Virus record (IMG/VR): IMGVR_UViG_3300016649_000397
Coordinates: 1 to 52,192 of that record
Length of the DNA: 52,192 bases
Reading direction: 5' to 3' (one strand)
Source: a virus
Taxonomy: Duplodnaviria; Caudoviricetes
The notes below the pieces were generated by a model, which saw nothing but the letters and a program-made list of their open reading frames with translations, was not told where the DNA came from and did no database searches. Shown here piece by piece: positions 3,242-52,165 of the stretch. Positions within the stretch are counted from its first letter, which is position 1. Each line of letters begins with the position of its first letter. Both the position numbers and the translations under genes were made by a program.

Positions 3242-3272
3242 GATCTATGCACTCCTTTTATATTATACACTA

Positions 3273-7336: not shown

Positions 7337-8971
7337 TTATGACTTATATCCCAAAGACTCAATTAGAGTCTGCGGGAGATAGATGTTGTTCCAGACCGAC
7401 TTGGGAGTAGACTTAATGATTGCCTCCTCTTCTTCGTTATCCTCGGGGTCAACACTCTTTTTAACAGCGCCAGCGTTTGCGATTTCCTCAACTTTGGCAG
7501 TCTGCTCTTCCAGAGCCTTCTCAGTTGCTTCTAGCTTCTGAGTAAGTTCTGTCTTCTGATCTTCGAATCCCTTTGCAACCTCATCAATCTTAGCAGCAAC
7601 ATTTGCTTCAACTTCAGCCTTAAGCGAAGTGGCAAAGTCGTTAAGCTTCTGATCAATGACGGAGCCAAGAGCTTCTTTCAGAACATCAATATCCATTTCT
7701 TGTTCCTCCATTTGTTCAGTATTTACTGCTGCCTCGGATGAGACTTCAGCATCGTCAAGCTTTTCAAGCTCAACATCGCTTGGTTCCGAACTTAACCAAG
7801 CGACAAACTTTTTAACTAGTGACAGTTTCTTTTCATCACCATCAATAAAATTATCCATAGGTTTCACCTTATCATATTCTACATCATTTTGCAATTCAAA
7901 ATGACTACTTTCTTCACTTTCTTCTTCGGAGTCAAGATCTTTGCCTTCGAAGTAAATCCTACCCTGTTCAATAACATCTTCTAAATCCTCATAAACTGTA
8001 TCTAATAGAATATCCATTAAAACATCTTGATTTTCTAAGTCAAAGTTAATATCATTTTCGTTAATTTGGTCTAATAGGGCCACTTGAAGATCTTCTGCCT
8101 CAAAAGACTTTTTTGCTTCTTTTGCTCTTCTATACCTTTCAAGCATACGACGACCTTTAGCTGCAAGTCTTGCAGCATCAGACCTATCCTGAGGGACAGG
8201 TTCGCCCCATGCGGCAGCAGAAAGAGCCAATCTTGTTGGCTTACCATTTGGCTTTTTCATGGGACCAGAAGGGTTGCTGAAGAAGCGAACAAGGAAAGAT
8301 CCCTTGCGCCGCATTTTTTCAGGAGTATTTGCCGGTCCTTTAACACCGGGCTTAAGGTTTGCACCCTCAGTCTGCTTAAAGTGTCTTCTGCCAGCAGCAG
8401 TCAATCCACCTTTTGGATCCTTAAGAGGCTGCTTTGCTTTTTCAAACTCTTCTTCGATAATTTCAAGAACATACTTCAAATCACCATCATCATTCTTTTT
8501 GACTAGATCAATTGTAGCAATTGCATTTGCTGGATTATCAACCAAGCTTAATTCACCAAGATTATATTCCTTGATGACAGAAACCGGCCTGCCATTGTAC
8601 GACTTGCCCTGCATCATTTCCTTTTTCAGAATTTTTCCGCCAATGGAAAATGCTCTCAATGTGCCATCAAGAACTTTTTGCCATGTGCTCTCTGCACCTT
8701 TAGAAATATATGCTTCAACTTGAATAGCATTATACTCTTGACCATCTACACCTTTAACTTTAATTGGCTTATAGCTAATTGCTTTACCAACAGCAATTGG
8801 TGCATGCATTTCTCTAATATTACCTTGCCAATTTTTGAATGCATCAAGCGATGCATTGAAATCAACAAGATCTCCAACTTTATCAACATTATCAGCGGTT
8901 GCAATACCACTAACAATTCGTTGTTCTTTCTTCACCATGTCAATGGGGAAAGTAAGATTAAAATCTGTCAT
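7337..8971 (-). CDS. Prohead protease fused to a scaffold-like acidic coiled coil
   Basis: IVSGIAT..VDKVGD, IREMH, FSIGG, ELSLVDNPAN motifs; lies between portal and capsid genes. Confidence 0.85.
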   Translation of the reverse strand: MTDFNLTFPIDMVKKEQRIVSGIATADNVDKVGDLVDFNASLDAFKNWQGNIREMHAPIAVGKAISYKPIKVKGVDGQEYNAIQVEAYISKGAESTWQKVLDGTLRAFSIGGKILKKEMMQGKSYNGRPVSVIKEYNLGELSLVDNPANAIATIDLVKKNDDGDLKYVLEIIEEEFEKAKQPLKDPKGGLTAAGRRHFKQTEGANLKPGVKGPANTPEKMRRKGSFLVRFFSNPSGPMKKPNGKPTRLALSAAAWGEPVPQDRSDAARLAAKGRRMLERYRRAKEAKKSFEAEDLQVALLDQINENDINFDLENQDVLMDILLDTVYEDLEDVIEQGRIYFEGKDLDSEEESEESSHFELQNDVEYDKVKPMDNFIDGDEKKLSLVKKFVAWLSSEPSDVELEKLDDAEVSSEAAVNTEQMEEQEMDIDVLKEALGSVIDQKLNDFATSLKAEVEANVAAKIDEVAKGFEDQKTELTQKLEATEKALEEQTAKVEEIANAGAVKKSVDPEDNEEEEAIIKSTPKSVWNNIYLPQTLIESLGYKS

Positions 8972-9017
8972 AAAGATATACTCCTAAGTGTATGCTATTT
9001 ATGTATTATATAGCAAA

Positions 9018-9275
9018 TCACCCAATGGCATAAACTGCAAGAGTAACCCCTGCTGTCATGACTTGGAACTTGGTATAGTCACCCTCAACCTCAACATAGT
9101 TTTTACCTGCTGGGATTAAAACTTGGTGGGGACCACCGTTCAGCTTAACAATTGCATTTGTAGAGCTATGAGTATTAATAAAATGAACACAAGTTGTGTG
9201 ACCATTGATTGAAACCTCATTAGCGGCACTTGTAACTGCTGTATTGGAATAAATAATTCCCATTCCGTAACTCAT
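9018..9275 (-). CDS. Hypothetical protein
   Basis: Overlaps the portal stop codon; AGGAGG RBS. Confidence 0.6.
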   Translation of the reverse strand: MSYGMGIIYSNTAVTSAANEVSINGHTTCVHFINTHSSTNAIVKLNGGPHQVLIPAGKNYVEVEGDYTKFQVMTAGVTLAVYAIG

Positions 9276-10882
9276 TCTGTACCTCCTGAATTATCTTGGT
9301 TTTGACCTCTTTCCGCCTGATCACCAGATTGTCTTGGATCAGAAGCACCTTCTGGTGTATCTGCTCTGGCATTTCTAGGCTGTGAGGATTGATTATTAGA
9401 ATTTCCTACTGGAGCACCCGGACCAGTCTGCTCCTTTTTAATTTTTGTCGGGAAAGGAAGCACTTCATCACCATCTGCTCTTTCTGGGAGACCCAGTGCA
9501 GATCTGACTTCGTTGGGTGCAATCACTTCTGTTCTCAGATATCTATCGTTAATTCTAGACTGAATATCTTCATCAATTAGGTCAATCTTCTTAAATCTCA
9601 TTGTGAAGAGATCTGTAAACTCCATCATAACTCTATTAATTCTTTTTTCAATAACTGACTGATCTGGACCGACAACTTGCATCTTAAATGTCTTGTCTGA
9701 GTCGCGTGAGACTGCAAGGTTTGCATTGTCATAAACACCAACCTTTGGAGCAGGAACTCTGTTAGCAACAAGAATTTCATCCCTGTTTGCTTTTCTATAT
9801 TTATCAAATGATGCGTCTTGAACACCAGCTTCTAACTTTTCAAACTTGATATCGCTATCAGCGCCAATAGAGGCAGGAATTGGAATAACAAGAGTACCAT
9901 GATTGCGACCTTTTACTTCTTTCCTAAAATAATTAATAAGTTCTTGCTTTGATTGATTACTTAATTTTGCACCCTTGACTATAACCGCATACCGAGGAAT
10001 AGCTTTATTTTCAAAATAATCAATGTTATATTCTTTTGCAAACTTATCGCCAACAATTGCAGCAGCAGCAGAAACTGAAGAAGGAACACCGTAATATGTA
10101 TTCTTAGGAGAGTAAATCTTAAAGTGAATGATCTCATTCGGTCTTGGATCTGAATTAATTGGGTCTTCTGTTTCTTGATCTCCGTAGTTTCTGAAGAAGA
10201 CCGCCGAGATTTTATTACTTCTTGCGATTTGGACAAAGCCATCTCTCTTCCTCCTTACCCGAACTAGTGTTCCGGGGATATGACCAATGTAACCAATTTG
10301 ACCAGAATTATTTCTACCTATTTCCAAATAGCCATTTCCAATTGTCAAAACATCTTGCCAAACCTTAATCATCGTCTCAATAAAAGTCTCTTCAAGGTTT
10401 ACATTTTCAAAAATTTCATCAAGTCTTTCTTTTTCATCTTGAAGCATTTTGCGAACACGACCAACTTTTTCTGGGTCGCCCATTGCTTTTTCAATTTTTC
10501 TCTTCGCCTTGGTTGTCTCTTCAAATTCAAAACCAACACCAACAGTATTCATCACTCTTGCCATTACGGAAGCATTGTGAATAGAGCTGGAATCAAATAA
10601 CCCAGCAAGAGTATCTAGATCATATGGTGGATTAACAATATCGTAAAGTGAATATCCATCAAGAGTTTCTGGATCAATATATTTTGTGCCAGTGCCATCT
10701 GTACCTTCAAACTTTTTGGACAACTTCATTGCCCGCCTCTTCATTCTTGGCGAGAGGGTAGAAAAAGATACTTTTGTAAATGGGTCATCAATAACCTGTT
10801 TGCTCTCTAAAGCAAGATATTCAATATCATCAATCTCTTGGACAGCATTACTATCTTCAATATGAACCATTTTTTTATCCAT
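9272..10882 (-). CDS. Portal protein
   Basis: GNGYLEIGRN, NEIIHFKIYSP..YYGVP, YFENKAIPRY, PNEVRSALGLP motifs. Confidence 0.9.
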   Translation of the reverse strand: MDKKMVHIEDSNAVQEIDDIEYLALESKQVIDDPFTKVSFSTLSPRMKRRAMKLSKKFEGTDGTGTKYIDPETLDGYSLYDIVNPPYDLDTLAGLFDSSSIHNASVMARVMNTVGVGFEFEETTKAKRKIEKAMGDPEKVGRVRKMLQDEKERLDEIFENVNLEETFIETMIKVWQDVLTIGNGYLEIGRNNSGQIGYIGHIPGTLVRVRRKRDGFVQIARSNKISAVFFRNYGDQETEDPINSDPRPNEIIHFKIYSPKNTYYGVPSSVSAAAAIVGDKFAKEYNIDYFENKAIPRYAVIVKGAKLSNQSKQELINYFRKEVKGRNHGTLVIPIPASIGADSDIKFEKLEAGVQDASFDKYRKANRDEILVANRVPAPKVGVYDNANLAVSRDSDKTFKMQVVGPDQSVIEKRINRVMMEFTDLFTMRFKKIDLIDEDIQSRINDRYLRTEVIAPNEVRSALGLPERADGDEVLPFPTKIKKEQTGPGAPVGNSNNQSSQPRNARADTPEGASDPRQSGDQAERGQNQDNSGGTE

Positions 10883-19983: not shown

Positions 19984-20065
19984 GGGCTAGTGTCGAAATA
20001 GGCAGACGAGACTCGCTTAAAACGAGTTGCCAACAGGCGTGTGGGTTCGATTCCCTCCTAGCCCA
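19984..20065 (+). tRNA. tRNA-Leu(TAA)
   Basis: GGGCTAG/CTAGCCC acceptor stem; ACTCG-CTTAAAA-CGAGT anticodon arm; long variable arm; GTTCGA T-loop. Confidence 0.9.
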
Positions 20066-20073
20066 CAATTATT

Positions 20074-20146
20074 GCCCCTGAAGCATATTTGGCTATGCAC
20101 TTCACTTGTAATGAAGAGATAGTGAGTTCGAATCTCACCTGGGGCT
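20074..20146 (+). tRNA. tRNA-Thr(TGT)
   Basis: CTTCA-CTTGTAA-TGAAG anticodon arm; GTTCGAATC T-loop; one acceptor-stem mismatch. Confidence 0.85.
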
Positions 20147-20187
20147 CAAATAATAGTCGGTCGCTGGGCTGTTATTATAAGATAAAT

Positions 20188-20227
20188 TAATGAGGTGGTC
20201 GCAGGTTCAAGTCCTGCATCGGGCTCA
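20188..20227 (+). pseudogene. Orphan 3' half of a tRNA
   Basis: GGTCGCAGGTTCAAGTCCTGC T-arm plus a 3' acceptor-like strand; no matching 5' half upstream. Confidence 0.55.
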
Positions 20228-20237
20228 AAGGAGGTAT

Positions 20238-20834
20238 ATGTTTATTCCAGATAATATGGCTAGTCATATTCAAAAAATTTTTGCTGGTGAATATGAAGTT
20301 CCATTTGCTACACCCAATCCTGTAATTTTTGATGTCGGCGCAAATATTGGTGGTTTTACCAGATGGGCTAATGCAAGATGGGCAAATGCACAAATTGTTT
20401 GTTTTGAACCGATCAAGTCAAACTTTGAAATGCTAAAGAAAAATACTTCTGATATGAATAATGTTCAGCTATTTAATGTAGGACTTGGCTCCAGTGATAG
20501 AAAGCAAAAAATGTATTATGGTAAAAATAATATTGGTGAAGCAAGTCTATTTAAAACAAATGAGCAAATTGATGATGGAGAAGAAGTTGATATTGTTTCA
20601 GCAGCACAATTGCCACAATGCCATATTATGAAGATTGATACAGAGGGGGCTGAAATTGAAATCCTTGAAATATATGAACATAATCCAGCAGTGTATCTGA
20701 TTGAATACCATTCAGAAGAAAATCGGTTAAAGATTGCCAATTTACTAAAAGATAAATATATCCTTGTCGGTATAAAAGCCGACAAGCCAAATTATGGTAT
20801 TGTAAAATACGCACTTAGAGAATTGGTGAAATAA
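20238..20834 (+). CDS. FkbM-family SAM methyltransferase
   Basis: IFDVGANIG, CFEP, MKIDTEGAE; AAGGAGG RBS before MFIP. Confidence 0.85.
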   Translation: MFIPDNMASHIQKIFAGEYEVPFATPNPVIFDVGANIGGFTRWANARWANAQIVCFEPIKSNFEMLKKNTSDMNNVQLFNVGLGSSDRKQKMYYGKNNIGEASLFKTNEQIDDGEEVDIVSAAQLPQCHIMKIDTEGAEIEILEIYEHNPAVYLIEYHSEENRLKIANLLKDKYILVGIKADKPNYGIVKYALRELVK

Positions 20835-20838
20835 CTAT

Positions 20839-20914
20839 TGGCGAGTAGCTCAGTTGGCAGAGCAAGGGACTGTTAATCCCTGTGTCGCAGGTTCGAGCCC
20901 TGCCTCGCCAGCCA
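20839..20914 (+). tRNA. tRNA-Asn(GTT)
   Basis: AGGGA-CTGTTAA-TCCCT anticodon arm; encoded CCA. Confidence 0.92.
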
Positions 20915-20915
20915 A

Positions 20916-20988
20916 GCGCCTTTAGCTCAGTGGTTAGAGCAAAATGCTTATAATATTTAGGTCGCGGGTTCAATTCCCGTAGGGCGCA
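20916..20988 (+). tRNA. tRNA-Ile(TAT)
   Basis: AAATG-CTTATAA-TATTT anticodon arm; canonical D and T arms. Confidence 0.85.
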
Positions 20989-21006
20989 CTGTGATATAAT
21001 TATTTT

Positions 21007-21411: not shown

Positions 21412-22180
21412 GCTAAACGCTTCTATCCCACCCATTGAATGCTATGTGCGTGGCAACTTTCTAAGAAATCAAGTAGATAGTCACAATTTGAAATTTCCGT
21501 GCGTAATATTCGGTGTGGCTTCCATCCCCGACAGAACGCCCGCATTTCATTTTCTAATGGAAGATGGCGGGGTTTGGTGGAGAGCACCTATAAATGCGTT
21601 CTGCGCCCGCCCAGACGCGCCTGAGGTTGATTTAAAAGATCTGGTCATGTGGAACAGTTTCTCATCCCACATCACCGTCACCGTTTTTGAGCACATGCGG
21701 GGCATGGCAATGACATACATTGATCGGCATAAACAGAAAGTTAATGGCAAATATATGTTTACCCTCGATTGGCACACTCCAGATATTAATATCCTTGATA
21801 CCGGGTATTCGGTAAATCCGGGGCAGCATAAATGTGGGCATGTAATCGAGCGGGAAGATGGTAACTATGCCATACAGCCAAATAATCGGATTAGATTATG
21901 GGATCCTTCATATACCACAAAGAAGGGTGAGAATCTTATTGATAGATTAATCAATGAAACATTATGGGATGTTGAAGATGGTGACAAATGGCTTACCTCA
22001 GATGACAACAGATATGATTACGAAGTGGTGGCCAAAAAAGATACTAACAAACCCACAGAACCCACAGGATTCACACAGTCCACAGAAGCCCTTGTGGTTG
22101 AATCAAACATTACCTATAATCAACCATTCCATGGAGCGTTTTATGATCAAGAGAGAACTAATGAGTGGTACTGGAAATAA
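21404..22180 (+). CDS. Phage hypothetical protein
   Basis: 258-aa ORF overlapping the nuclease stop codon. Confidence 0.7.
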   Translation: MPELNASIPPIECYVRGNFLRNQVDSHNLKFPCVIFGVASIPDRTPAFHFLMEDGGVWWRAPINAFCARPDAPEVDLKDLVMWNSFSSHITVTVFEHMRGMAMTYIDRHKQKVNGKYMFTLDWHTPDINILDTGYSVNPGQHKCGHVIEREDGNYAIQPNNRIRLWDPSYTTKKGENLIDRLINETLWDVEDGDKWLTSDDNRYDYEVVAKKDTNKPTEPTGFTQSTEALVVESNITYNQPFHGAFYDQERTNEWYWK

Positions 22181-22376
22181 ATATAATCCCGGAATTTATA
22201 TTAATGGGCATTATATTAATCCAAGGTATTTATTGTCTGCGACAACTGAAGAAAATTTAAAACCCGGATTTTTAGATAAAAGTTGTGATACAATGGAATT
22301 GGCTGATCCTGAGTGATCACGCTACTTGGGACCGTTATAGTTGCATTTGCCCAAGGGGTCGATATTTAAGACCCGG

Positions 22377-22415
22377 CCTGTCTTGTCACCCCGATTTTTG
22401 ACAAGGCAGGTTTTT
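22377..22415 (+). terminator. Intrinsic terminator ending the rightward operon
   Basis: CCTGTCTTGTCA...TGACAAGGCAGG followed by TTTTT. Confidence 0.7.
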
Positions 22416-22487
22416 ATTCTGACCCGATTATGTGAAAAATTTGAGTAAATATTTGTAGAGGGTTATGCATCATTTCAGGGGTGGGGG

Positions 22488-22501
22488 CGAACGTGTGTTC
22501 G
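22488..22501. promoter_or_regulatory. LexA (SOS) box, Gram-positive/actinobacterial type
   Basis: Perfect CGAAC-GTGT-GTTCG. Confidence 0.65.
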
Positions 22502-22592
22502 GGGGGGTCAATAGGGGTAGGTAAGCCATTTCGTCAGATTATGGGCTAGCGAAACCCTTATGGAATAAGGGTTTTAGGGTAGTTTCGTTGAC

Positions 22593-22621
22593 TTGCGGTA
22601 ATCTTGCGGGGTTGCTAGTGT
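22593..22621 (+). promoter_or_regulatory. Sigma70-type promoter
   Basis: TTGCGG-17 nt-TAGTGT with TGn extension. Confidence 0.55.
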
Positions 22622-22667
22622 CTTGGGCGGTGGCAATACCGCCACCCCAACCAAGTGAGGTAATCCA

Positions 22668-23096
22668 ATGAGTAAGAAGCCAACAGCCACCAAGCGCAAG
22701 GGTTCGGGTACGCCCGAAGCCAAGCGAATGACGGCAGTAGTCAAGGCGAAGCAAGAAGCCAACGGTAAGGCGAGGGTCAAGAAGCACTATCTGACCCCCT
22801 ACTTGCTAGAAGCGGTGGCGAAGGTTCTCACCCTGCCCCGCATTACCAAGCCCGAAGCCCGCAACAGCGATAGCGTCGTCGTTATTGACGCTCGCAAGGT
22901 TGTGCGGACAGTCAAGCCGTCGCTAGTCATCCGCCCAGACAATACCGTTCGGGCTCGCCTCATCTCGCTAGCGGGCATCAAGGGAATGAGCAAGGTTGGC
23001 GAGGTTGGATACCTTCGCCTTCTGCCGAATAATCACCCCGACATTGCTAAGGGTACGGATGAGGCGTACCAAGTGATACTGTTCCACGCCAAGTAA
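22668..23096 (+). CDS. Basic protein, family A copy 1
   Basis: RPDNTVRAR motif; GAGG RBS; own promoter and terminator. Confidence 0.8.
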   Translation: MSKKPTATKRKGSGTPEAKRMTAVVKAKQEANGKARVKKHYLTPYLLEAVAKVLTLPRITKPEARNSDSVVVIDARKVVRTVKPSLVIRPDNTVRARLISLAGIKGMSKVGEVGYLRLLPNNHPDIAKGTDEAYQVILFHAK

Positions 23097-23115
23097 TCCC
23101 CCCCCAACCCCCCCG

Positions 23116-23150
23116 CCCCCCGCCCGCCCGCAAGGGTAGGCGGGGGGTTC
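23116..23150 (+). terminator. GC hairpin with GCAA tetraloop
   Basis: CCCCCCGCCCGCCC-GCAA-GGGTAGGCGGGGGG. Confidence 0.6.
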
Positions 23151-23325
23151 GGCGTTATGGGGCAAGTCGATCGGCAGCTCGCCCCGGTCGCCCAACACGC
23201 CCAGCGTAACATTACAGATTATGGTCTCATTTTTAGTGTGTGTAATATTACGACACCAAACTCTACAACGTCTCTGAGTGTCTCATTTTTAACACGTAAT
23301 ATTACTAACCCTTTCACTTTATGAC

Positions 23326-23354
23326 TTGCAATCCCCGTGTAAGTTTAGTAGGCT
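23326..23354 (+). promoter_or_regulatory. Sigma70-type promoter
   Basis: TTGCAA-17 nt-TAGGCT. Confidence 0.6.
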
Positions 23355-23388
23355 GGTAGTAGGGTAATCAACAAGAAAGGACAGCCCT

Positions 23389-23586
23389 ATGATAAAAGAA
23401 AGTGCAATTATCCCGATGAAAGGCTCACTTCGTGGAATTGTTGTAACAGGCAACATTCTGCAACTCTGGTACTCGTCACCAACAGGTGATAGTTCGGATG
23501 TTTGCATTCACGAATTGACCTGCATCAACAACGCCCAAGCCAATACAATTGGCGAAATGCACCTGCGAGTCTGGAATCTCATCTAG
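23389..23586 (+). CDS. Small hypothetical protein
   Basis: AGAAAGG RBS; upstream promoter. Confidence 0.6.
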   Translation: MIKESAIIPMKGSLRGIVVTGNILQLWYSSPTGDSSDVCIHELTCINNAQANTIGEMHLRVWNLI

Positions 23587-23629
23587 ACTCTCAACGACCC
23601 CAACAACCTCACCCAAGAAAGGGGGAAAA

Positions 23630-23731
23630 ATGGAACTCACCATCAACATAAGCGAGTATGTCTCTTACTCGCTCATTGTTGCCAGCGTGGTGATAGTTAG
23701 TCTTATCGCCGTGCTTCGCAACCGTAAGTAA
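23630..23731 (+). CDS. 33-aa single-TM peptide
   Basis: AGAAAGGGGG RBS; MELTINISEYVSYSLIVASVVIVSLIAVLRNRK; terminator follows. Confidence 0.55.
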   Translation: MELTINISEYVSYSLIVASVVIVSLIAVLRNRK

Positions 23732-23735
23732 TTCT

Positions 23736-23782
23736 AGAAACCCCGACACTTGTTATTTTGAGTGCCGGGGTTTCTTATTGTT
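23736..23782 (+). terminator. Intrinsic terminator
   Basis: AGAAACCCCGACACTT...GAGTGCCGGGGTTTCT then TATTGTT. Confidence 0.65.
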
Positions 23783-23945
23783 ACGTATGTGTAATTTTAC
23801 AAGATCTAACCCTTTATGCTGTAATATTACCGCGGGTGGAGCTGCCCAGTTTACGTAGCAGACGCACCCGTTAGAATAAAAGTCCTATCTCTAGACATTT
23901 AGTACGCGCGCTGTAATCTTACGCGGTGTACCATAAATGGGATAG

Positions 23946-23974
23946 TTGGTAATCTTTCGTGGCGGTGCTACACT
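23946..23974 (+). promoter_or_regulatory. Sigma70-type promoter overlapping a degenerate GTAATCTTTC box
   Basis: TTGGTA-17 nt-TACACT with TGn extension. Confidence 0.6.
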
Positions 23975-24022
23975 CGTAGCAACGAATCGCAACCCGCGAT
24001 TCACTCACAGAAAGATACAACG

Positions 24023-24502
24023 ATGGCAAAGAGCAACGGAAAGAAAGAGTGGCTGAATCTCATTCAGTCAGCCATTCAGAAAGTGAATCGCGTGCGCGCG
24101 AGTCAGCGCGCAAAGCAGATATACCTGAACCGTCACCTACTGAGCGCGATGGCGGTTGCGCTCTTTGAGCGACCCGCAATCGACGCGAGCGAGACAGATA
24201 CGCGCTCGTGGTGCTTTGCGAATCGTGCGGTGACTGTCTCGGTGGATTCACTCGTTCACCCGAATCACGCGAAGAAAGTCAGCATCGCTCGCCCCGATAA
24301 CACCGTGCGCGCGCGAATCGGTACTTTCGTCGAACTCGTGAGCGACAAAGCGGCAACGAAAGACCTGAACGCTCGCGAGCGCAAAGCACTCGCGATGATT
24401 CAGACTCTCACCTACTGCCGATTCATTCAGAACGGCTCGCCGGCGGCAAGTGACGAGAGCAACGCCGACGCAAAGAAAGTGTTCGTGATTCGCGTCAAGT
24501 AA
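24023..24502 (+). CDS. Basic protein, family A copy 2
   Basis: RPDNTVRAR motif; AGAAAG RBS. Confidence 0.8.
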   Translation: MAKSNGKKEWLNLIQSAIQKVNRVRASQRAKQIYLNRHLLSAMAVALFERPAIDASETDTRSWCFANRAVTVSVDSLVHPNHAKKVSIARPDNTVRARIGTFVELVSDKAATKDLNARERKALAMIQTLTYCRFIQNGSPAASDESNADAKKVFVIRVK

Positions 24503-24517
24503 TCACGCGCGCTCGGT

Positions 24518-24560
24518 AAGAGCCGCGGCACTCGCGAGAGTGTCGCGGCTCTTTCTCTTT
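24518..24560 (+). terminator. Intrinsic terminator with GNRA loop
   Basis: AAGAGCCGCGGCACTC-GCGA-GAGTGTCGCGGCTCTT then TCTCTTT. Confidence 0.75.
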
Positions 24561-24816
24561 GTACCGTCTTTCTCTTTCTGCCGCCGATCGACGTAGCACC
24601 GGGACACTTACCTATTCGCAAGTGTGTACCATTATTGCCCCGTACCATTAATGTCCCGCTATACGTAATATTACCAAGCGGTTCATAAGTTACAGGCAGG
24701 TAAGTTTAGTGTGCGTATCTCTTTATGGAGATCTATCTGGGATGTTTTTGCTGGAGTAATATTACATGGTCTCATTTCTTTAGTATGTAAGTTTACAAAG
24801 GCCCGAACTTTATGAC

Positions 24817-24845
24817 TTGTAATCGTTATTCATATCCGATATACT
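24817..24845 (+). promoter_or_regulatory. Sigma70-type promoter
   Basis: TTGTAA-17 nt-TATACT. Confidence 0.65.
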
Positions 24846-24883
24846 GAGCCTTGCCATATCCACCACCTACCGAAGGGATCCAT

Positions 24884-25060
24884 ATGAATGACTACCTAGT
24901 TCAGATACGCGAACCGCACAAGCGTTATCGCACCGTGCTACGAACGACTAGCGAAGCGCAGGCGCTGTTATATTACAGCGCTTACAATGTCGCTTACGGC
25001 GTTGCCAAGCGCATTATTCGTGGCAACGGCAAACTCGTCACTCGACTAGTCACTCACTGA
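24884..25060 (+). CDS. Small basic hypothetical protein (58 aa)
   Basis: GAAGGG RBS; promoter upstream; hairpin at 25071-25113 downstream. Confidence 0.6.
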   Translation: MNDYLVQIREPHKRYRTVLRTTSEAQALLYYSAYNVAYGVAKRIIRGNGKLVTRLVTH

Positions 25061-25259
25061 TTACACAGCAGTAAAGTTACACCGGGGAACCCCCTGCCCC
25101 GGTGTAGCTTTACAAGATACAGGTGTAATATTACCGCGGGCGTGTGGGGTCGCTACGCTGAGGAACACGCCCGTACCATTAATGGTACACATACGAAAAA
25201 GTTTAGTAAGCATTTGTAATCTTACACAAGTGTACCTTTTATGGTACATAAACAAATAC

Positions 25260-25298
25260 AAAAAAAATGCGGGGCATTTCTGCCCCGCACCTTTTTTG
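25260..25298 (-). terminator. Intrinsic terminator, possibly bidirectional
   Basis: TGCGGGGCA-TTTC-TGCCCCGCA flanked by A and T tracts. Confidence 0.75.
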
Positions 25299-25305
25299 GT
25301 ACTGC

Positions 25306-25728
25306 CTACACTCGGTACAAATACACCTTGTAGGCGTTTTCATTTGTCGGGTCGTTTGCGTCTGTCGTGCCATTCACTAGGTAGCGACAGTAGGCGACCT
25401 TTGCCACCTTGCCATTTACCTTACGCAAGGTCGCTAGACGCTGGCGTACGAAGTTTTCGGGTCGCAAGCACGACACTTTGCCCTTTTTGTTTTCGTGTGC
25501 GATTTTGCGAATGTCTACGATAGGCGCACCATTTGTGGCACACCACTCGCGAGCGTTTTTATCCGCTGGCATTTTCGACATTTCTAGTGCCTCACCGATA
25601 GCGAGGTTTAGCACCTTGCTATCGTAAATCGGTTTAGCACGAAGTTTTTTTAGTACCTTATTTGTCTTAGCGATACCACCGCTAAGCACCTTTGCGAAGG
25701 CTTGCGCCTTCTTTTTGTTTGTTGCCAT
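25306..25728 (-). CDS. Basic protein, family A copy 3
   Basis: RPENFVRQRL motif; GAAAGG RBS before MATNKK; promoter TTGCGT-17 nt-TATGAT. Confidence 0.8.
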   Translation of the reverse strand: MATNKKKAQAFAKVLSGGIAKTNKVLKKLRAKPIYDSKVLNLAIGEALEMSKMPADKNAREWCATNGAPIVDIRKIAHENKKGKVSCLRPENFVRQRLATLRKVNGKVAKVAYCRYLVNGTTDANDPTNENAYKVYLYRV

Positions 25729-25935
25729 TTTCGTTTGCCTTTCGTGAAGGTTCGCCCGTTGCGAACCGTTGCCTTCATCATAGCGTGTCGAAATCTTACA
25801 CGCAACCATACCATAAACGGTACACTGTAATTTTACACCTAAACATTTTTTTCACGTAATATTACCAAGCGGACTAATCTTACCTGCTTGTAATTTTTAG
25901 TAGATTTACTCTTTATGGAGAGTAAGTTTACTAAC

Positions 25936-26064
25936 TTACTCTTCGTCTGTCTTGCGCCACAACTCGTCGTAGAACTCATTACGGCGGTCGTGCCATTTTA
26001 GGTAGTAAGGATACACAAGATGAACGATTAGAACAGATGCGATAATAATGGCTATGTTTGTCAT
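25936..26064 (-). CDS. 42-aa leaderless single-TM peptide (not in the ORF track)
   Basis: MTNIAIIIASVLIVHLVYPYYLKWHDRRNEFYDELWRKTDEE; TTGTAA-17 nt-TAGAAT ends 6 nt before the ATG. Confidence 0.55.
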   Translation of the reverse strand: MTNIAIIIASVLIVHLVYPYYLKWHDRRNEFYDELWRKTDEE

Positions 26065-26315
26065 ACGTCCATTCTACTAAAATTACACAAGCATTACAAC
26101 CATCATTTGTAATCTTACATGATGGTGGGTGTAAGATTTACTTTTCTGGAAATCTTACACCCACAGGGTAATGTTACATGATAGGTCTAGATTGAATACG
26201 TAATTTTACACGGCCCATTTCTTTATGATGTGTGAACCTAATCTAATGCTGATAGACTGTCTCTAATGCCAACGTGGCAGGCAACCAATAGGTTGTAAAG
26301 TTACAGGAGACAACG

Positions 26316-26657
26316 ATGACAACATTCAGCGAACTAATGGAAGACACGACGCAGATGGTGAGTAGTCTTACGACACACTTCATCATCGCGCAACGCGCAT
26401 CGGGCATTGAGCGCGCAGAAGTATTACACACGGATAAGATTACGTCCGCGCTGGAATACCTGAGCAATCACGATGCCCCGACAGTATCCAACGCCGACGC
26501 GATGGAATACTTGGCAGAAATGATGACGCTGGTGAAGTGTGAGCGCGAAGCGGTGCGTAACTTTACCGCGATGGATGATACGCACGTCCGCGAGTTTCAG
26601 GAATGGTGCGACATCGTTATCGTCGGAATGCGACTGCTCGCCATAGTCGAAGAATAA
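26316..26657 (+). CDS. Acidic helical hypothetical protein
   Basis: AGGAG RBS; hairpin at 26665-26710 downstream. Confidence 0.7.
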   Translation: MTTFSELMEDTTQMVSSLTTHFIIAQRASGIERAEVLHTDKITSALEYLSNHDAPTVSNADAMEYLAEMMTLVKCEREAVRNFTAMDDTHVREFQEWCDIVIVGMRLLAIVEE

Positions 26658-26849
26658 CACGGCAGTAAACTTACGTCGAGGCTAGATGATTAGCCCCGGC
26701 GTAACTTTACACTATACCCGTGTAAGATTACGCGGGCGTAACTTTTGGGGGGTTGAAAAGTTACGCCCGCTGTAATGTTACGCAAATGTAAGGAAAATTT
26801 AGTACTCATTTGTAATTTTACAACAAAGAAAGTTTATGAAAGGGAAAAC

Positions 26850-26878
26850 CAAACACTTGTTCGCAAAACACACGTTCG
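26850..26878. promoter_or_regulatory. Two tandem near-consensus LexA boxes
   Basis: CAAACACTTGTTCG and AAAACACACGTTCG. Confidence 0.5.
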
Positions 26879-27105
26879 CCCTCAACCGTGTAATTTATCT
26901 AGTCTGACTAAAATTACGCGATGTAATTTTTCTAATTCGGTGTGTCTCCCGTCACACCCTCAAAAAGCCCCGATTCTATTGACTTTTTTGAGTGTCTATG
27001 AAGACTAGAATTACACAAAGCACTAGCGAAGTCTCCCTACCGCCACTAAGGTGATTACTAGTGAAGTCCGAACCCCAAGTAGGGCTCACTAGAAAGGCAA
27101 TTACA

Positions 27106-27387
27106 ATGGCAACCGACGACTTTGAGGTGGTAAGTGAAGATTCACTTACCTTCGCTAAGCGAGGTAGAAAGTCACAAGTGAGCCCCGCACTTGTGAAAAG
27201 CATCGGGGCACTCACCAAAGGCAAGGCGCTCGTCGTCAAGTCAATGGCAGTGAACCCGAACAGCCCAAAGGCAAAGACGGAAAAGGCAAAGTATTCCGCC
27301 ACACTCCGCCAAGCGGGCAAGCAAGCGGGCAAAAAGGTGCGAATTGGCTGGTCGCCTGCGGGGATTCCGCAAGTGACGCTAGCCTAA
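27106..27387 (+). CDS. Small basic protein, family B copy 1
   Basis: FEVVSEDSLTFAKRGRKS; AGAAAGG RBS. Confidence 0.8.
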   Translation: MATDDFEVVSEDSLTFAKRGRKSQVSPALVKSIGALTKGKALVVKSMAVNPNSPKAKTEKAKYSATLRQAGKQAGKKVRIGWSPAGIPQVTLA

Positions 27388-27397
27388 ACTAGCACCG

Positions 27398-27454
27398 AAG
27401 TAGTTTTACAGGCGCTCACTCCCCCCGCGCCTGTAAAATTACTTTTTTCTTTTT
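27398..27454 (+). terminator. Intrinsic terminator built from GTAAnnTTAC-type boxes
   Basis: AAGTAGTTTTACAGGCGC...GCGCCTGTAAAATTACTT followed by a T tract. Confidence 0.7.
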
Positions 27455-27692
27455 CACGTAATATTACGCGGGCGTAATCTTACTGTCAGATAAGATTACG
27501 CCCGCAGTAACATTACACAAATGTAAGATTACTTGAGTACGCATTTCTAACGTAACATTACCCGGCCGAAACTTTTATGAGATCTAATGTAACTTTACCG
27601 GCCCGCTACTTTACGGCTGAGTTGCCGGCTATTGTCGATCATTATTCTTGATCTATTCTTGACCTATTCACTCAACTATTATGGATAGTTTG

Positions 27693-27739
27693 CGAACACA
27701 CGTTCGCTAGTTGTAATCCGATCTCGACCCTGCTAGTAT
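27693..27739 (+). promoter_or_regulatory. Perfect LexA box abutting a sigma70-type promoter
   Basis: CGAACACACGTTCG 27693-27706; TTGTAA 27711, 17 nt, TAGTAT 27734 with TGn extension. Confidence 0.7.
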
Positions 27740-27745
27740 GTCTCT

Positions 27746-27985
27746 TGCCATCTTGACCCGTACTCAGGTCACCTAGTAGGCGGGCGGTAATTTTACCGCC
27801 GAGCATCGGCTAGGTCTGAGTGTGTATGGCGCGAGCGTCGCTCGCAAGTTTGGGATACTAGGCAGACAGCGAAACCTAGCGCGCGTGTAAGGTAACGAAC
27901 ACGGCAGACAAAACTTACAGCAAGGGTCACGAGTGATTATCGTGACCGTATCCCACTAGTAGCGTTACTCACACGAAAGGTTACA
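27746..27985 (+). ncRNA. Candidate structured leader RNA (about 240 nt)
   Basis: Multiple nested stems and a possible pseudoknot next to the RBS. Confidence 0.55.
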
Positions 27986-27988
27986 CAG

Positions 27989-28285
27989 ATGTCCAAATCT
28001 GATGACCACGAGTTTGAGTTCGTGAACGAAAGCGAACTCAGGTTCGCAAAGCGCGGTCGCAAGTCTCAGGTCAACCCTGAGATCGTCGCGCAGATCAAGA
28101 AACTTACCGTAGGTAAGTGTCTGACGATCAAGAGCCTGAGAGTTGACCCCAAAGACAAGAGCCGTAAGGCTACTGTCTCGGCTCAACTACGCTCAAGCGC
28201 AAAGGTTGCCGGCGTTGAGGTGGACATTCAGTTCACCATCGACGGCGTGCCGACCGTGCGCTTGCGTTCACGCTCAAAAGCGTGA
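27989..28285 (+). CDS. Small basic protein, family B copy 2
   Basis: FEFVNESELRFAKRGRKS; GAAAGG RBS. Confidence 0.8.
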   Translation: MSKSDDHEFEFVNESELRFAKRGRKSQVNPEIVAQIKKLTVGKCLTIKSLRVDPKDKSRKATVSAQLRSSAKVAGVEVDIQFTIDGVPTVRLRSRSKA

Positions 28286-28373
28286 GCTCTGACGAACCTG
28301 TAATCTAACGGATTACGGCTCTAACTACTAATCGGCTTGGCAAGCCGAGATAGCGTATGGGTGGCAACAGCAG

Positions 28374-28447
28374 GCAGACTAGCGGGCGCGTAATGTTTCA
28401 GGGACTCATCAACCTGAACCTACGCGCTCGCTAGTCTGTTTTTTTTT
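28374..28447 (+). terminator. Long terminator hairpin
   Basis: CAGACTAGCGGGCGCGTA...TACGCGCTCGCTAGTCTG followed by a T9 tract. Confidence 0.75.
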
Positions 28448-28934
28448 GTCTTGTCGATGTACCATAAATGCCCCATACCGCAAATGCCCCGGTCGATCGC
28501 CACGTCGGCCGCGTTCCCTTACACGGTCGTAAAGTTACGTCCGTGCTATTTTTTTGGGCGAACTACGGTAATATTACCAACGGTAATATTACATGTAACT
28601 TTGAGAATTTGAATAATCTTATTTTTTATATATAATATTACCTTTATGACTACCTTTATGTAATCTTACGGCGGGTGTAATATTACGGCATCTTAATATT
28701 ACACCCGAGGTAATATTACACCGGCTCTCAACAATTGAGTAAGCCTATTCCTAATCCGTTTCTTTACGGCCGACAAAACCTTTATGTAATCCGTAATCAT
28801 ACAGCTAATCTTTATGGCCGGTAATATTACCGCTTTGTAATCTTACAGCCGGGGAAGATAAAAAAAAACATCGACTTTTAGCTAATCCTTTACTGAAATG
28901 GTTTAGCCTTTGATCGACGTGATACAAAAGAAAA

Positions 28935-28958
28935 TGGGTGGGGTTTTATCCCCACCCA
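28935..28958 (-). terminator. Terminator for 29007..29342
   Basis: TGGGTGGGG/CCCCACCCA stem with an A tract on its left. Confidence 0.65.
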
Positions 28959-29006
28959 AATCCTTATTCTTTTCGTTTTCGGTAGCGTTGGGAAACGCTT
29001 AGTCAA

Positions 29007-29342
29007 TTATTTCTTGGTTGCCTTAGCGAATTTCGCGGCTGGAATTTTACCTTCGTGCCAACGAATTTCGACAGTCATTCCCAAACGCTTTGCGATTTGG
29101 CGAATGTTTGCCGAAACTGTTGCCTTGTGATTTCGGATTGACTTTGCGTCAGTCATTCCCGAAGGAATTGCCTTGCCGTGAAAAAGAACCCATTTGTCTG
29201 GGTTTTTTTCGACCTGAACGCGAACCGTTTCCACTTCCTTTTCGGAAATGTTTGATTTGCGCCCACGCTTGGCGAAAACCAAATCGTTTTCGGATACGAT
29301 TTGGAAATCACCTTCTTTCGGTGTTTCGTTTTCTTTTGCCAT
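29007..29342 (-). CDS. Small basic protein, family B copy 3
   Basis: FQIVSENDLVFAKRGRKS; AAAGGA RBS; promoter TTGGTT-17 nt-TAGCGT. Confidence 0.8.
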   Translation of the reverse strand: MAKENETPKEGDFQIVSENDLVFAKRGRKSNISEKEVETVRVQVEKNPDKWVLFHGKAIPSGMTDAKSIRNHKATVSANIRQIAKRLGMTVEIRWHEGKIPAAKFAKATKK

Positions 29343-30008
29343 GTTGGTTTTTTTCCTTTGTGTGTTGTTTTTGTTTTTTGTTTTTTTAGCGTTTCCCAAC
29401 GCTGGGGACAACGCTACCAGCCAACGTAAAAAAAACCAACCTCAAACTAAAAAAAACATTATTTCATGCCTTTTCCCGTCGGCCGGGTTTTGGCGTTTCT
29501 TTCATAGATTTTCCGGCACAATAGTCGATCAATAGCTTTATAGGTCGTCGCAGGCTAGTGTAATATTACGGTTGGTAATATTACACCGTTGTAATGTTAC
29601 ATGGAGTACATAAAAAAAATCAACTCATTCTTTATCTAATGTTTTAGATAAAGTAATACCTTTATGGGACAATCATTTCCCCAATTACAATCTGAGCAGT
29701 TAGGCAACCCTAACGCTGGGGATTACATAGGTGTAATTTCCATCTAATGGCTTAGCACTTAGACATAATAAGTTCCGGGTTGTTTGATAAATCTTCTCAG
29801 ATGTATAACTATCTATAGAGAGACTAATACTATCAGTTATTCAATCATTTATCTTTCCCGGACCTTTACGCTAGGATAAATCGGTCTCTTTATAGGGTGC
29901 TTGTGCAAAAGTGAAGGTTTTTCACTGTTTTTGATAGGTTTTTGCCCATTATTTTACAATACACCATAGAAATTATTAATTTTATACGCATTTTAGAGCG
30001 TTTTCCGC

Positions 30009-30073
30009 CTCATTTCTGTAGGACGTATGTTTATCTGTAGGACATATGTAACTCATTTCTGTAGGATGTATCT
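30009..30073. repeat. Three tandem TCTGTAGGAYRTATST units
   Basis: Direct repeats seen in non-coding DNA. Confidence 0.7.
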
Positions 30074-30250
30074 AAGAGACGTAACCCCTCTGAAAAGAAT
30101 ATCCCATCTATTCATCTTCTTCAGAATCAAACTCCCATTCATATCTCTTGATCATTCCATTGATAATCATATCCCACATCTTTTCAATAGCGTCATCTTC
30201 ATTCCCGGCCTCGATTATTTCCGAATACCAAGCATTTACCTTATACTTTT

Positions 30251-30532
30251 TCATTTCTTTACCTTAGTGCTTTTGGGCTTTGATTTCTTAGCTTTTTTTG
30301 CCACCGCTTTTTTTGCATTTGCCGTCTTTGATTTCCGCGGTCTACTCTTTGGCGATTTCGTAGCCTCAAGCAGATAGATTATATAATCTACCCCTTCCAA
30401 ATACCCATCCCAAAAGCTAAACTCTTTATCCCCGGTTTGTTCAGCGTATTGCTTTTGCTTAAAGGCGTCATTTCTGACCTCTTTAATTCGAGCAAAAAGC
30501 ATGCTTCTTTTGATTCTCTCATCCTTATCCAT
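30251..30532 (-). CDS. Hypothetical protein with a Lys/Ala-rich histone-like tail
   Basis: GGAGG RBS before MDKDER. Confidence 0.6.
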   Translation of the reverse strand: MDKDERIKRSMLFARIKEVRNDAFKQKQYAEQTGDKEFSFWDGYLEGVDYIIYLLEATKSPKSRPRKSKTANAKKAVAKKAKKSKPKSTKVKK

Positions 30533-44206: not shown

Positions 44207-45172
44207 TTAGGCTTTAGCCCAAACCTGTTGTGGCAAGAGATTCATTGGGAAATCAGGAAGACGATTGTTCTTCAATTTCACATTGTATCTGCTAACAATC
44301 AGGAATGGCAAAGATGTGAATGTAATTGTTTGACCACTGCTCATCATTGCTTGAGCCTGAGCAATAACCAATGAAGGATTGCCAATCTTAGCCAATACTT
44401 CACTCAAACGTTTCTGATCAACTTTTTTGCCATAGCGATGATAAATGCAACCGATAGCAGAAATCATTTGATCACGATACATCTCTTTGTTATTCGGATA
44501 TGCATCTCTAAGCGTTTCCAAAGTCTTAGCCAAAACAGTTGGGCCGGCATTAGTGTATACTCTACGAACAGTAGCAACACATCTAATTACATTTGCGCCG
44601 GGGCCTTCATCAAACGAAGCACCAACTTTTGCTACAACATTAGCAATACCGACAGCGATTGAATCACCCGATACAATGCCAGCCTTAAAAATTTGCGAAG
44701 GTGTTGGCTTTGTGTGTTCTTTATTTGTCAAAGCAAAGATATGTGCTTCATCTTGAATTGACAAACCAAAATACACAAGCGCATTAACATTTGTATCTTT
44801 CATTCCCATCTGAATCAAAGCGTGATATCTATGGCTACCGTCAATGATTGCCAAAGTATTATCTTCACGCATTGAGCAGGTAATCACGCCAAGCAAATCC
44901 GGATTGAAATTCTTTACAATGCGGTTGATTTTTGCCGTAAGCGGTTTGCGTTGATATGTGTAATCAACGAACATTTCATTGACCTTGACATACGATGACA
45001 TTTTTGAGATATGTCCTATGTCAAAGTTTGCGCCAAGAGTTTCGCGATATGGACTAATTGCCACATTCACAGACTTCTTGATTTCTTTACTAGTTACAGT
45101 TTCAGCAGTGTTTATTTTTACCACAGCTTTCTCCTTTACCTTGGTCTTAAGTGTATTCTTTTTCTTCGGCAT
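44207..45172 (-). CDS. ParB/Srx-like N-terminal domain protein
   Basis: VDYTYQR...FNPDLLGVI...IIDGSHR...EAHIF..N; AGGAGG RBS. Confidence 0.7.
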   Translation of the reverse strand: MPKKKNTLKTKVKEKAVVKINTAETVTSKEIKKSVNVAISPYRETLGANFDIGHISKMSSYVKVNEMFVDYTYQRKPLTAKINRIVKNFNPDLLGVITCSMREDNTLAIIDGSHRYHALIQMGMKDTNVNALVYFGLSIQDEAHIFALTNKEHTKPTPSQIFKAGIVSGDSIAVGIANVVAKVGASFDEGPGANVIRCVATVRRVYTNAGPTVLAKTLETLRDAYPNNKEMYRDQMISAIGCIYHRYGKKVDQKRLSEVLAKIGNPSLVIAQAQAMMSSGQTITFTSLPFLIVSRYNVKLKNNRLPDFPMNLLPQQVWAKA

Positions 45173-48902: not shown

Positions 48903-48952
48903 TTTTTTTCCTTTGTTATATCTTACTCTTTTGAGTAAGAAACTAATTTTTG

Positions 48953-49026
48953 CGTTGCCGATAGGACTTGAACCTATAACCTAAACATTAGAAGTGTTTT
49001 GCTCTATCCAATTGAGCTACGGCAAC
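48953..49026 (-). tRNA. tRNA-Arg(TCT)
   Basis: GTTGCCG/CGGCAAC acceptor stem; AAACA-CTTCTAA-TGTTT anticodon arm; GGTTCAAGTCC T-arm. Confidence 0.9.
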
Positions 49027-52139: not shown

Positions 52140-52165
52140 GTAAGATTACAGCCACGTAATATTAC
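52140..52165. repeat. Pair of GTAAnnTTAC boxes, 16 bp apart
   Basis: GTAAGATTAC 52140 and GTAATATTAC 52156. Confidence 0.85.

Follow-up and report, generated by a model that had tools for sequence, protein, structure and literature searches.

The hyperplastic regions of T4-type phages are dotted with PeSLs, short repeats in which a sigma-70-like promoter is joined to a terminator stem-loop (PMC2839356; PMC4122927). The reports, drawn on here in excerpt like the others that we cite, count about 50 PeSLs per genome, with eight of them in about 5 kb (PMC2839356). Here we describe a locus that recalls these regions. It lies in a 52,192-base stretch of phage DNA, the entire linear IMG/VR virus record IMGVR_UViG_3300016649_000397, whose completeness is estimated at 50%; we refer to this whole stretch as the window. 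Tens of copies of a 10-bp palindrome, GTAAnnTTAC, are interleaved in the locus with small genes, among them two families of basic proteins, A and B.

The likeness to PeSLs is close in two respects. A variable region is densely set with short composite regulatory repeats, beside small ORFans that each have a stem-loop of their own, and the joints of indels and replacements between related phages fall in the repeats. The differences are as clear. The dominant repeat here is a symmetric palindrome, arranged in phased runs and accompanied by a second motif, CTTTATG. Moreover, the phage is of the siphovirus type and not a T4-like myovirus: a complete relative (G002) encodes a 3067-amino-acid (aa) tape measure protein, and the capsid protein is 50% identical to the capsids of Streptomyces siphoviruses.

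Repressor sites offer a second comparison. Cluster A mycobacteriophages are temperate. Their stoperators are asymmetric, occur genome-wide and are bound by a monomeric immunity repressor (PMC9283540). Our locus likewise has tens of copies of one short, putative repressor site between phage genes, but the site is palindromic with symmetric constraint, the copies crowd into a single region of 6-8 kb, and no integrase (PF00589) was found in any of the five phage records searched. The temperate Streptomyces phage phiC31 has highly conserved inverted repeats of 17 bp at about 18 loci, in many intergenic regions and near promoters and terminators; they are operators for one phage protein, a known repressor. 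The present site differs in being 10 bp long, in occurring in 40-66 copies, often in phased runs, and in having a binder that is still a candidate.

Other systems share single traits with the locus. In anti-CRISPR operons the strong promoter of small accessory genes is damped by a regulator of the same locus, an Aca protein, acting at inverted repeats. Aca proteins have a helix-turn-helix and one or two operators per operon, whereas here no helix-turn-helix is detectable, the sites number in the tens and no gene of the locus is known to act in counter-defence. Integron attC sites are inverted repeats that mark cassette boundaries, as ours do, but no tyrosine recombinase was found here. ParB with parS, and KorB, exemplify many palindromic sites for one dimeric protein; the known sites measure 13-16 bp, compared with 10 bp in our case, and the ParB-like gene of the window is absent from two complete array-bearing genomes.

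The palindrome itself is not without precedent. The LacI-type regulator GlyR2 of Clostridium thermocellum recognizes sites with an identical GTAAnnTTAC core, of which GTAATATTAC is a bound example (PMC8457756). Because this site has the same core, a compact palindrome of the type can be read by a dimeric helix-turn-helix protein. An earlier note on the window, made from its sequence alone, did not recognize the motif as a known operator; the published core corrects that statement, although no LacI-type domain (PF00356) occurs in any of the five phage records. GlyR2 governs a cellular sugar regulon from single sites upstream of operons, according to the excerpted account, and the host of our phage is unrelated to its host as far as can be told. 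A full-text literature search, with supplementary files outside its scope, returned no phage paper containing the motif strings.

We report that the palindromes form a real, conserved and functional array, and we propose, with somewhat more confidence than doubt, that each is the operator of a sequence-specific dimeric DNA-binding regulator. What is known in kind here are PeSL cassettes and multi-operator phage regulons; what is new is the pair of motifs and the two protein families.

Results

The palindromes are clustered, intergenic and phased

The window holds 46 exact copies of GTAANNTTAC, compared with a mean of 0.87 (standard deviation 0.93, maximum 4) in 100 dinucleotide-preserving shuffles, none of which reached 46. 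A control with the reversed pattern gave a single occurrence. The earlier note had described about 44 clustered copies where less than one was expected, a motif absent elsewhere except at the right end, nearly all copies intergenic, and recurrent spacings of 15-17 and 29-33 bp. Each of these statements holds. Forty-four copies lie at 23206-29600 and just two outside, at 52140 and 52156, so that the motif is far from equally frequent along the record. All but one of the 44 are intergenic, although 2764 of the 6395 nt (43%) of the span are coding; the sole genic copy starts at 26557. Neighbouring sites are 15-17 bp apart in eight pairs and 29-33 bp apart in seven. Copies with one mismatch number 43 in the window, 28 of them within 23-30 kb.

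Phasing is a general property of these arrays, spacings of 16-18 bp being present in all eight that we examined. The longest run in the window has five sites (Table 1); its middle, 27468-27505, is a perfect 15-nt inverted repeat, and the run is kept in the related locus L068. The preference for non-coding DNA is also found in relatives, where family A and B genes contain two copies in 13,122 nt of coding sequence, while the 17,000 nt upstream of them hold 121 and the 9,914 nt downstream 117 (the flanks of neighbouring genes overlap).

Could the array be an assembly artefact, as the earlier note allowed? Independent contigs of four runs from four studies cover 27-30 of the 30 bins of 22000-30500, and related records share the architecture. 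The array is therefore not an artefact.

The array has a fixed place in a lineage of freshwater siphoviruses

We compared the window with two complete genomes, G002 and G003, with loci from viral contigs (L numbers) and with contigs of the runs X4, X5 and X8. The window encodes head genes, a portal, ribonucleotide reductase and five tRNAs; G002 adds a DnaE-like polymerase. The nearest cultured relatives by capsid sequence are Streptomyces phages of about 133 kb. DNA of the window was detected in freshwater metagenomes of several studies, and the array DNA has no match among GenBank phages.

In G002 (105,669 bp), 43 of 44 palindromes fall within 82477-90319, that is, in 7.8 kb of 105.7 kb; in G003 (105,121 bp), 38 of 43 fall within 85334-91113. 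G002 is syntenic with the window and has its array in the same slot, which comes after the phrog_3704 gene and precedes a long block of leftward genes. Counts over whole array-bearing records are 66, 44, 43, 36 and 19, against 1-2 for the control pattern. The locus is thus a variable region of 6-8 kb at a fixed place in the genomes of a lineage of uncultivated freshwater siphoviruses of about 105 kb. Its G+C content, 0.44-0.51 compared with about 0.33 in the flanks, is not a mark of foreign origin.

Viral contigs were scanned for pairs of sites 5-7 bp apart, and at least 117 stretches matched. Dense arrays appeared in further records among the matches listed, most of which are single chance pairs. 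Seven candidates were rejected as arrays: in L029, L058, L062, L063, L075 and L108 the motif lies inside repetitive coding sequence (GGTAAYATTACTGG-type repeats), and L083 is a 16-bp tandem repeat. An iterated profile search found neither family A nor family B in these seven. The GGTAAYATTACTGG-type repeats occur in unrelated viral contigs, where they probably encode fibre-like proteins, and are a source of false positives in motif scans.

Symmetry, conservation and placement point to a dimeric binder

If the palindrome were read by a dimer, both halves should be under the same constraint. The one-mismatch variants of eight arrays, 195 in all, bear this out: changes number 46 and 57 at positions 0 and 9, 18 and 19 at 1 and 8, 7 and 7 at 2 and 7, and 27 and 14 at 3 and 6. 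In relatives the palindrome lengthens to TGTAAnnTTACA (31 of 44 copies in G002).

The fixed positions are also conserved. Over two long intergenic regions aligned between the window and L068 (about 70% identical overall), the eight fixed positions are identical in 115 of 128 columns and TTTATG in 28 of 29, compared with 23 of 32 for the two central positions and 772 of 1158 for the other intergenic columns. The motif is retained even in G002 and G003, where the intergenic DNA can no longer be aligned.

Some sites lie where operators would be expected. L052 shows the DNA beyond the end of the window, since its proteins are 80-90% identical to those of the window's right-hand operon. It has three sites with 16-bp spacing that end 6 nt before TATAAT, itself 13 nt before the start of the terminase gene; this is a classical operator position. 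The pair near the right end of the window co-occurs with the first gene of the leftward operon in G003, L052, L017, L085 and L086, and G002 has neither the pair nor the gene.

Because the half-sites are symmetrically constrained, the runs are phased at 16 bp and the fixed positions are conserved, the reader is probably a dimeric DNA-binding protein. With the pairs and triples at operon starts, these features support, as far as sequence can, the earlier note's proposal that such a protein binds cooperatively. Symmetry, conservation and placement would all suit a palindrome that selection maintains at promoters as the target of a cognate protein, which is at present a candidate.

Palindromes and CTTTATG boxes form repeated cassettes

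The second motif, CTTTATG, occurs 11 times in the array (at 23317, 23812, 24721, 24808, 25911, 26221, 28642, 28654, 28780, 28810 and 29660, a range of about 23318-29667), where base composition predicts 0.54. It is strongly directional. The strand ratio within arrays is 11:0 in the window, 19:1 in G002 and 0:8 in G003. Elsewhere the motif shows no strand bias. In all eight loci fetched through protein B, the direction is that of the B1/B2-type genes. The two motifs keep a set distance. Among 500 oriented sites in eight arrays, 41 are followed by TTTATG at the peak distance of 10-12 nt, and such palindrome-TTTATG modules number 44 in 10 sources. Of 87 CTTTATG boxes, 44 are preceded at this distance by a palindrome, exact in 35 cases and with one mismatch in nine. 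The preferred place of a third box, TTAGTA, is about 17 nt beyond the palindrome, with a weaker signal. Attempts to fit palindrome, TTTATG and TTAGTA by eye into a single -35/-10 grammar gave no consistent rule.

Terminators are part of the same arrangement. There are 18 terminator-like hairpins where 7.9 are expected. Inverted-repeat pairs number 20, and in several the palindrome is part of the stem. The hairpins have conserved inverted ends and variable, GC-rich middles. Since the palindrome often stands 10-12 nt before CTTTATG and in terminator stems, we regard it as belonging to repeated regulatory cassettes. At the right end the array closes with a boundary element, a hairpin followed by a conserved string (Table 1), which recurs at the same array end in L068, L038, L118, L076 and G002.

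The earlier note held that most of the small genes have their own promoter and terminator. The terminator half of this claim stands; the promoter half is less secure, because a consensus scan found 15 sigma-70-like promoters against 11.0 expected (standard deviation 3.2), with the reservation that the consensus may not be that of the host. Set beside the definition of PeSLs, then, the locus has the stem-loops, the variable region (its accessory genes vary) and the ORFans, all nine array proteins scanned lacking a match in Pfam and PHROGs; for the promoters the comparison is less clear.

Strains differ by whole cassettes

Five large joints separate contigs of other runs from the window. Joint 23305->23820 skips 514 nt (X8); 23304->23949 comes from X5; 24814->25070 has 405 other letters in place, so that orf58 is replaced (X8); 25057->25125 has 117 letters in place (X5); and 22588->22714 has 122 (X4). 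Seven of the 10 endpoints lie directly at a palindrome (exact or with one mismatch) or where a CTTTATG ends. Cassette breakpoints thus lie at the motifs. L068 shows the same for orf65: a single palindrome-TTTATG module takes the place of the two modules that, in the window, flank a cassette of about 500 bp. L068 also carries other or extra cassettes between the shared A and B genes. The joints 26992->28043 and 28087->27211, between the paralogues B1 and B2 in three runs, were excluded from the count because they may be cross-alignments; those in 26992-28087 are either paralogue recombinants or cross-alignments.

What enzyme would move the cassettes? A search for tyrosine recombinases (PF00589) was negative in all five records, two of them complete, and positive in 14 of 14 reference genomes used as controls. 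This makes an integron-like mechanism unlikely. The near-identity of the repeats suggests instead that the cassettes themselves serve as joints for recombination.

Two protein families travel with the array

The earlier note counted 11 small genes, including two triplicated families of basic proteins, and open reading frame (ORF) calls, isoelectric points (pI) and a profile search agree. Both families have three copies in the window, with pI values of 10.1-10.5 for A and 10.0-10.4 for B. The B proteins of array-bearing phages are about 40-50% identical and share an invariant R-G-R in an N-terminal arm.

The families keep company with the motif. An iterated profile search found A (17 ORFs) and B (21 ORFs) in array-bearing loci only, the loci being among the matches listed. 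Conversely, all eight loci fetched through protein B carry 12-41 palindromes and no copy of the control pattern, so that the co-occurrence that the earlier note asked about in other phages is real. In G003 three of three A genes and three of three B genes lie inside the array. In G002 both A genes and three clear B genes do; one weak B-like ORF lies outside, at 2973-3365 (E 5.4e-5). A 108-aa protein of L052 (3182-3508), encoded between the terminase gene and a site pair, matches the B profile with an hhalign probability of 38% (E 3.3e-4), including an RxGRxS arm. The G002 ORF, listed as L122, is in the equivalent region, and the two do not align. They may represent a distant fourth B-type gene outside the array.

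One search returned 203 relatives of B, and a second, over 1.84 billion proteins, 122 cluster representatives, none of them named; A has 37. Pfam gave nothing above its cut-off for 10 distant relatives of B, sequence searches of the PDB gave nothing significant for A or B, tblastn found neither in GenBank phages, and the ESM Atlas supplied no usable lead. The AlphaFold models (pLDDT 92.7 for A2 and 78 for B2) had no Foldseek match in the PDB at E<=0.001, the best for A being E 0.98. A wide search with VIA-align peaked for A at Z 3.7 and for B at Z 6.0 (an insert of PUS7), followed by SpoVS at Z 5.3 and by R3H and IF3-like rows, all below the level at which the tool is trusted.

Codon use sets the families apart. 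The G+C content at third codon positions (GC3) is highest, in three genomes, in the A and B genes, mostly 0.45-0.74 against medians of 0.27-0.29, except for the divergent B3-type copy (0.25 in G002, 0.36 in G003). Capsid genes, computed in two genomes, are also high (0.55 in the window, 0.40 in G002). We infer that the high GC3 of A and B is the codon bias of very highly expressed genes.

A ParB-like/DndB-like protein (phrog_1033, DUF6551) is encoded at 44207-45172 of the window and also in L017; tblastn at E<=1e-3 found it in neither G002 nor G003. A role for it in the array, or in segregation, as the earlier note had suggested, is not supported, since both of these complete genomes bear arrays. 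Sigma factors (PF04542) were absent from the five phage records.

Discussion

How might such a locus work? In the typical cassette a terminator hairpin is followed by one to five palindromes phased at 16 bp, and a palindrome stands 10-12 nt before CTTTATG. Cassettes separate small genes that are probably very highly expressed and may be early. We suggest that a dimeric regulator, perhaps a repressor, binds the palindromes and most likely limits or times transcription from the cassettes, and that it would also act on a few other operon starts with site pairs or triples. The cassettes double as recombination joints at which intervening genes are deleted, inserted or swapped, a part of the reading that the observed breakpoints show directly. 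Families A and B are by association the best candidates for the binder.

Several observations weigh against this proposal. The proteins of the locus have no recognizable DNA-binding domain in Pfam, in PHROGs or in searches of solved structures and folds. High GC3 could instead reflect biased gene conversion in a recombination hot spot. Since several sites are the stems of hairpins, part of their conservation may act at the level of RNA or cruciforms. Among 44 pairs 15-18 bp apart, 13 have complementary central dinucleotides where 7.6 would be expected, a count reached by 55 of 2000 shuffles; at spacings of 19-45 bp there is no such excess (13 of 77 against 12.5). Nor is the link to promoters tidy. 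Thirty-eight of 87 CTTTATG boxes have no palindrome at the fixed distance, the modules stand 139-409 nt before the B genes, which is long for a promoter, sigma-70-like sites are hardly in excess, and TTTATG makes a poor -10 element. About half of the 11 plus-strand CTTTATG copies have, by eye, no plus-strand gene within about 450 nt downstream; for this reason what they drive may be short transcripts, non-coding or antisense, or they may be binding sites themselves.

Is a dedicated binder needed at all? The cassettes might act purely in cis, as PeSLs do, with the palindrome serving the host RNA polymerase as a promoter and terminator signal: TTGTAA or TTACA, on either strand, would be a -35-like element, the stems would terminate, and recombination between repeats would shuffle the genes. 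Terminator-like hairpins are indeed enriched, palindromes are the stem bases of at least two terminator-type hairpins, and breakpoints fall at motifs, much as PeSLs are dense in variable regions beside ORFans in the excerpted report (PMC2839356). A promoter scan places a half-site as -35 in TTGTAA-17-TATACT (24817-24845), and we see by eye ATTACA-16-TATAAA on the minus strand after the run at 29560-29600, before B3. An asymmetric -35, however, needs no equal constraint on the two half-sites, a plain promoter has no use for runs of three to five sites at 16-bp phasing, there is no enrichment of sigma-70-like promoters, and a gap of 10-12 nt between palindrome and TTTATG does not suit -35/-10 spacing. 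We therefore find this reading rather unlikely, and we think it improbable that the sites are operators for a host regulator, for example of the LacI type, through which the phage lets expression follow host physiology. The latter idea draws on the core site of GlyR2 (PMC8457756, in excerpt) and on the lack of known DNA-binding domains in the phage proteins. Yet freshwater metagenomes, and not a thermophilic clostridium, are the source of the phage, and the motif is kept together with the lineage-specific A and B even where B has diverged to about 40-50% identity, which makes a phage-encoded partner the simplest explanation.

Two further readings were weighed. The array might be a structural nucleoprotein platform, and not a switch of transcription, coated by the abundant A and B: a centromere-like array, an ejection stop or a first-entry region, or a collapsed long terminal repeat as in T5 and SPO1. 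The ~133-kb Streptomyces phages nearest by capsid have long terminal repeats. Each genome has a single array, placed where two convergent gene blocks meet, CTTTATG polarity is uniform throughout, several contigs start or stop in or beside it, and A and B, small, basic and in three copies each, have the codon bias of abundant proteins. Contig breaks are to be expected anyway in a repeat-rich, strain-variable region, however; the ParB-like protein is missing from both complete array-bearing genomes, site pairs and triples also stand directly at operon starts far from the array, and sites keep a fixed distance from a directional box upstream of genes. We give this reading a small chance. Site-specific recombination of the integron type, in which palindrome-flanked hairpins would be attC-like sites of a dedicated recombinase, would account for the conserved ends and variable middles of the hairpins and for the gain, loss and replacement of cassettes at motifs. 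It is nonetheless very improbable: no record has PF00589 (serine recombinases and other nucleases were not searched for), many sites lie outside hairpins, and the joints in L068 and X8 fall inside the palindrome-TTTATG module, as expected for homologous exchange between repeats.

A dimeric regulator acting at operators remains our preferred reading. An extension of it, which we offer as rather doubtful, is that the locus is a dedicated, integrase-free cassette platform of lytic phages: A and B would each read one motif, the palindrome and CTTTATG, the resulting nucleoprotein array would insulate and time very strongly expressed genes, and the repeats would be joints for exchange between co-infecting lake phages.

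The question matters because variable regions of small, uncharacterized genes are where phages keep much of their host-specific equipment, and the regulation and reshuffling of such regions are known in detail for a few model phages only. Among the abundant, uncultivated phages of fresh water this locus provides a clean natural example, with a fixed place, two sharp DNA motifs and natural strains that differ by whole cassettes cut at those motifs. Family A has a confidently predicted structure without a match among solved structures. Whether motif and protein belong together can be tested directly here; the locus might also furnish compact, orthogonal regulatory parts, and it offers a route to recognizing such cassette loci in metagenomes by sequence alone.

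Coordinates and minor observations

Table 1. Genes, sites and composite elements of the locus, with positions in the window
Feature	Position	Strand	Description
Family A, copy 1 (A1)	22668-23096	+	142 aa; pI 10.5; GC3 0.69
Palindrome array	23206-29600	.	44 exact GTAAnnTTAC and 28 one-mismatch variants; 43 of 44 exact copies intergenic
Module	23296-23323	+	Palindrome, 11 nt, CTTTATG; 71 nt before orf65 start
orf65	23389-23586	+	Accessory cassette gene
Hydrophobic peptide ORF (putative gene)	23630-23731	+	33 aa; in accessory cassette of orf65; starts at internal Met of ORF 23549-23731
Module	23791-23830	+	Palindrome, 11 nt, CTTTATG, second palindrome; right breakpoint of missing cassette
Family A, copy 2 (A2)	24023-24502	+	159 aa
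Module	24787-24814	+	Before orf58; CTTTATG end (24814) is left breakpoint of cassette replacement in X8
orf58	24884-25060	+	Accessory cassette gene; pI 10.3
Hairpin	25071-25113	+	After orf58; outer stem of palindrome copies
Module	25216-25243	+	Palindrome, spacer, TTTATG
Family A, copy 3 (A3)	25306-25728	-	140 aa
Module	25812-25836	-	Palindrome, 9 nt, TTTATG; upstream of A3
Hydrophobic peptide ORF (putative gene)	25936-26064	-	42 aa
Module	26200-26227	+	94 nt before orf113
orf113	26316-26657	+	Acidic (pI 4.5); contains genic palindrome 26557
Module	26812-26838	+	Upstream of B1; TTTATG begins 273 nt before B1 start codon
Family B, copy 1 (B1)	27106-27387	+	93 aa
Terminator of B1	27398-27444	+	Stem base of two palindrome copies, then T-run
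Five-site run	27458-27532	.	Sites at 27458, 27474, 27490 (variant), 27507, 27523; steps of 16-17 bp
Module	27552-27579	+	Upstream of B2; TTTATG begins 415 nt before B2 start codon; leader conserved
Family B, copy 2 (B2)	27989-28285	+	98 aa
Site pair	28568-28592	.	15 bp apart
Four-site run	28660-28719	.	Sites at 28660, 28677, 28693 (variant), 28710; inside 27-nt inverted repeat
Site pair	28821-28846	.	16 bp apart
Family B, copy 3 (B3)	29007-29342	-	111 aa; divergent, reverse-oriented type; in every array
Three-site run	29560-29600	.	15-16 bp apart; upstream of B3
Boundary element	29632-29700	+	Hairpin TTATCTAA..TTAGATAA, then CCTTTATGG
Site pair	52140-52165	.	16 bp apart; about 300 nt upstream of leftward operon starting at 51836

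The cassette that other strains lack has its left breakpoint at the palindrome end of the module at 23296-23323; orf65 is absent in L068 and in the strains of runs X5 and X8, and has homologues in L076 and L050. A weak relative of orf113 occurs in G003. L068 has at 7880-9807, the position of orf113 in the window, three consecutive cassettes for proteins of about 141-149 aa, two of them with CDCDxC motifs, which we read by eye as possible relatives; these cassettes and orf113 may form a third family of variable copy number.

Four Rfam rows were obtained for 22000-30500 at E<=1, all at chance level. The B2 leader (about 400 nt, 27600-27988) contains blocks nearly identical in L068, for example 27735-27830 and 27860-27935, and small hairpins, of which the one at 27779-27804 carries a palindrome in its tip. 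The leader has no Rfam match and may be a structured leader or a small RNA. Past the boundary hairpin TTATCTAA..TTAGATAA and TAATACCTTTATGG, about 400 nt follow without a convincing ORF.

The DNA that follows A1 (23097-23152), a C-rich/G-rich tract, folds into a hairpin. This is exactly where the related record behind L068 stops, and contigs of other runs break or pile up at the same place; the tract is probably hard to sequence or assemble.

The five tRNA genes (Leu-taa, Thr-tgt, Asn-gtt, Ile-tat and Arg-tct) lie at 19984-20989 and 48952-49026, all outside the array and four of them just upstream of the gene block on the array side. At 349-2897 two neighbouring paralogues (phrog_2295, function unknown) have a G+C content of 60-62% in a genome of about 33%, with a coding strand strongly richer in G than in C.

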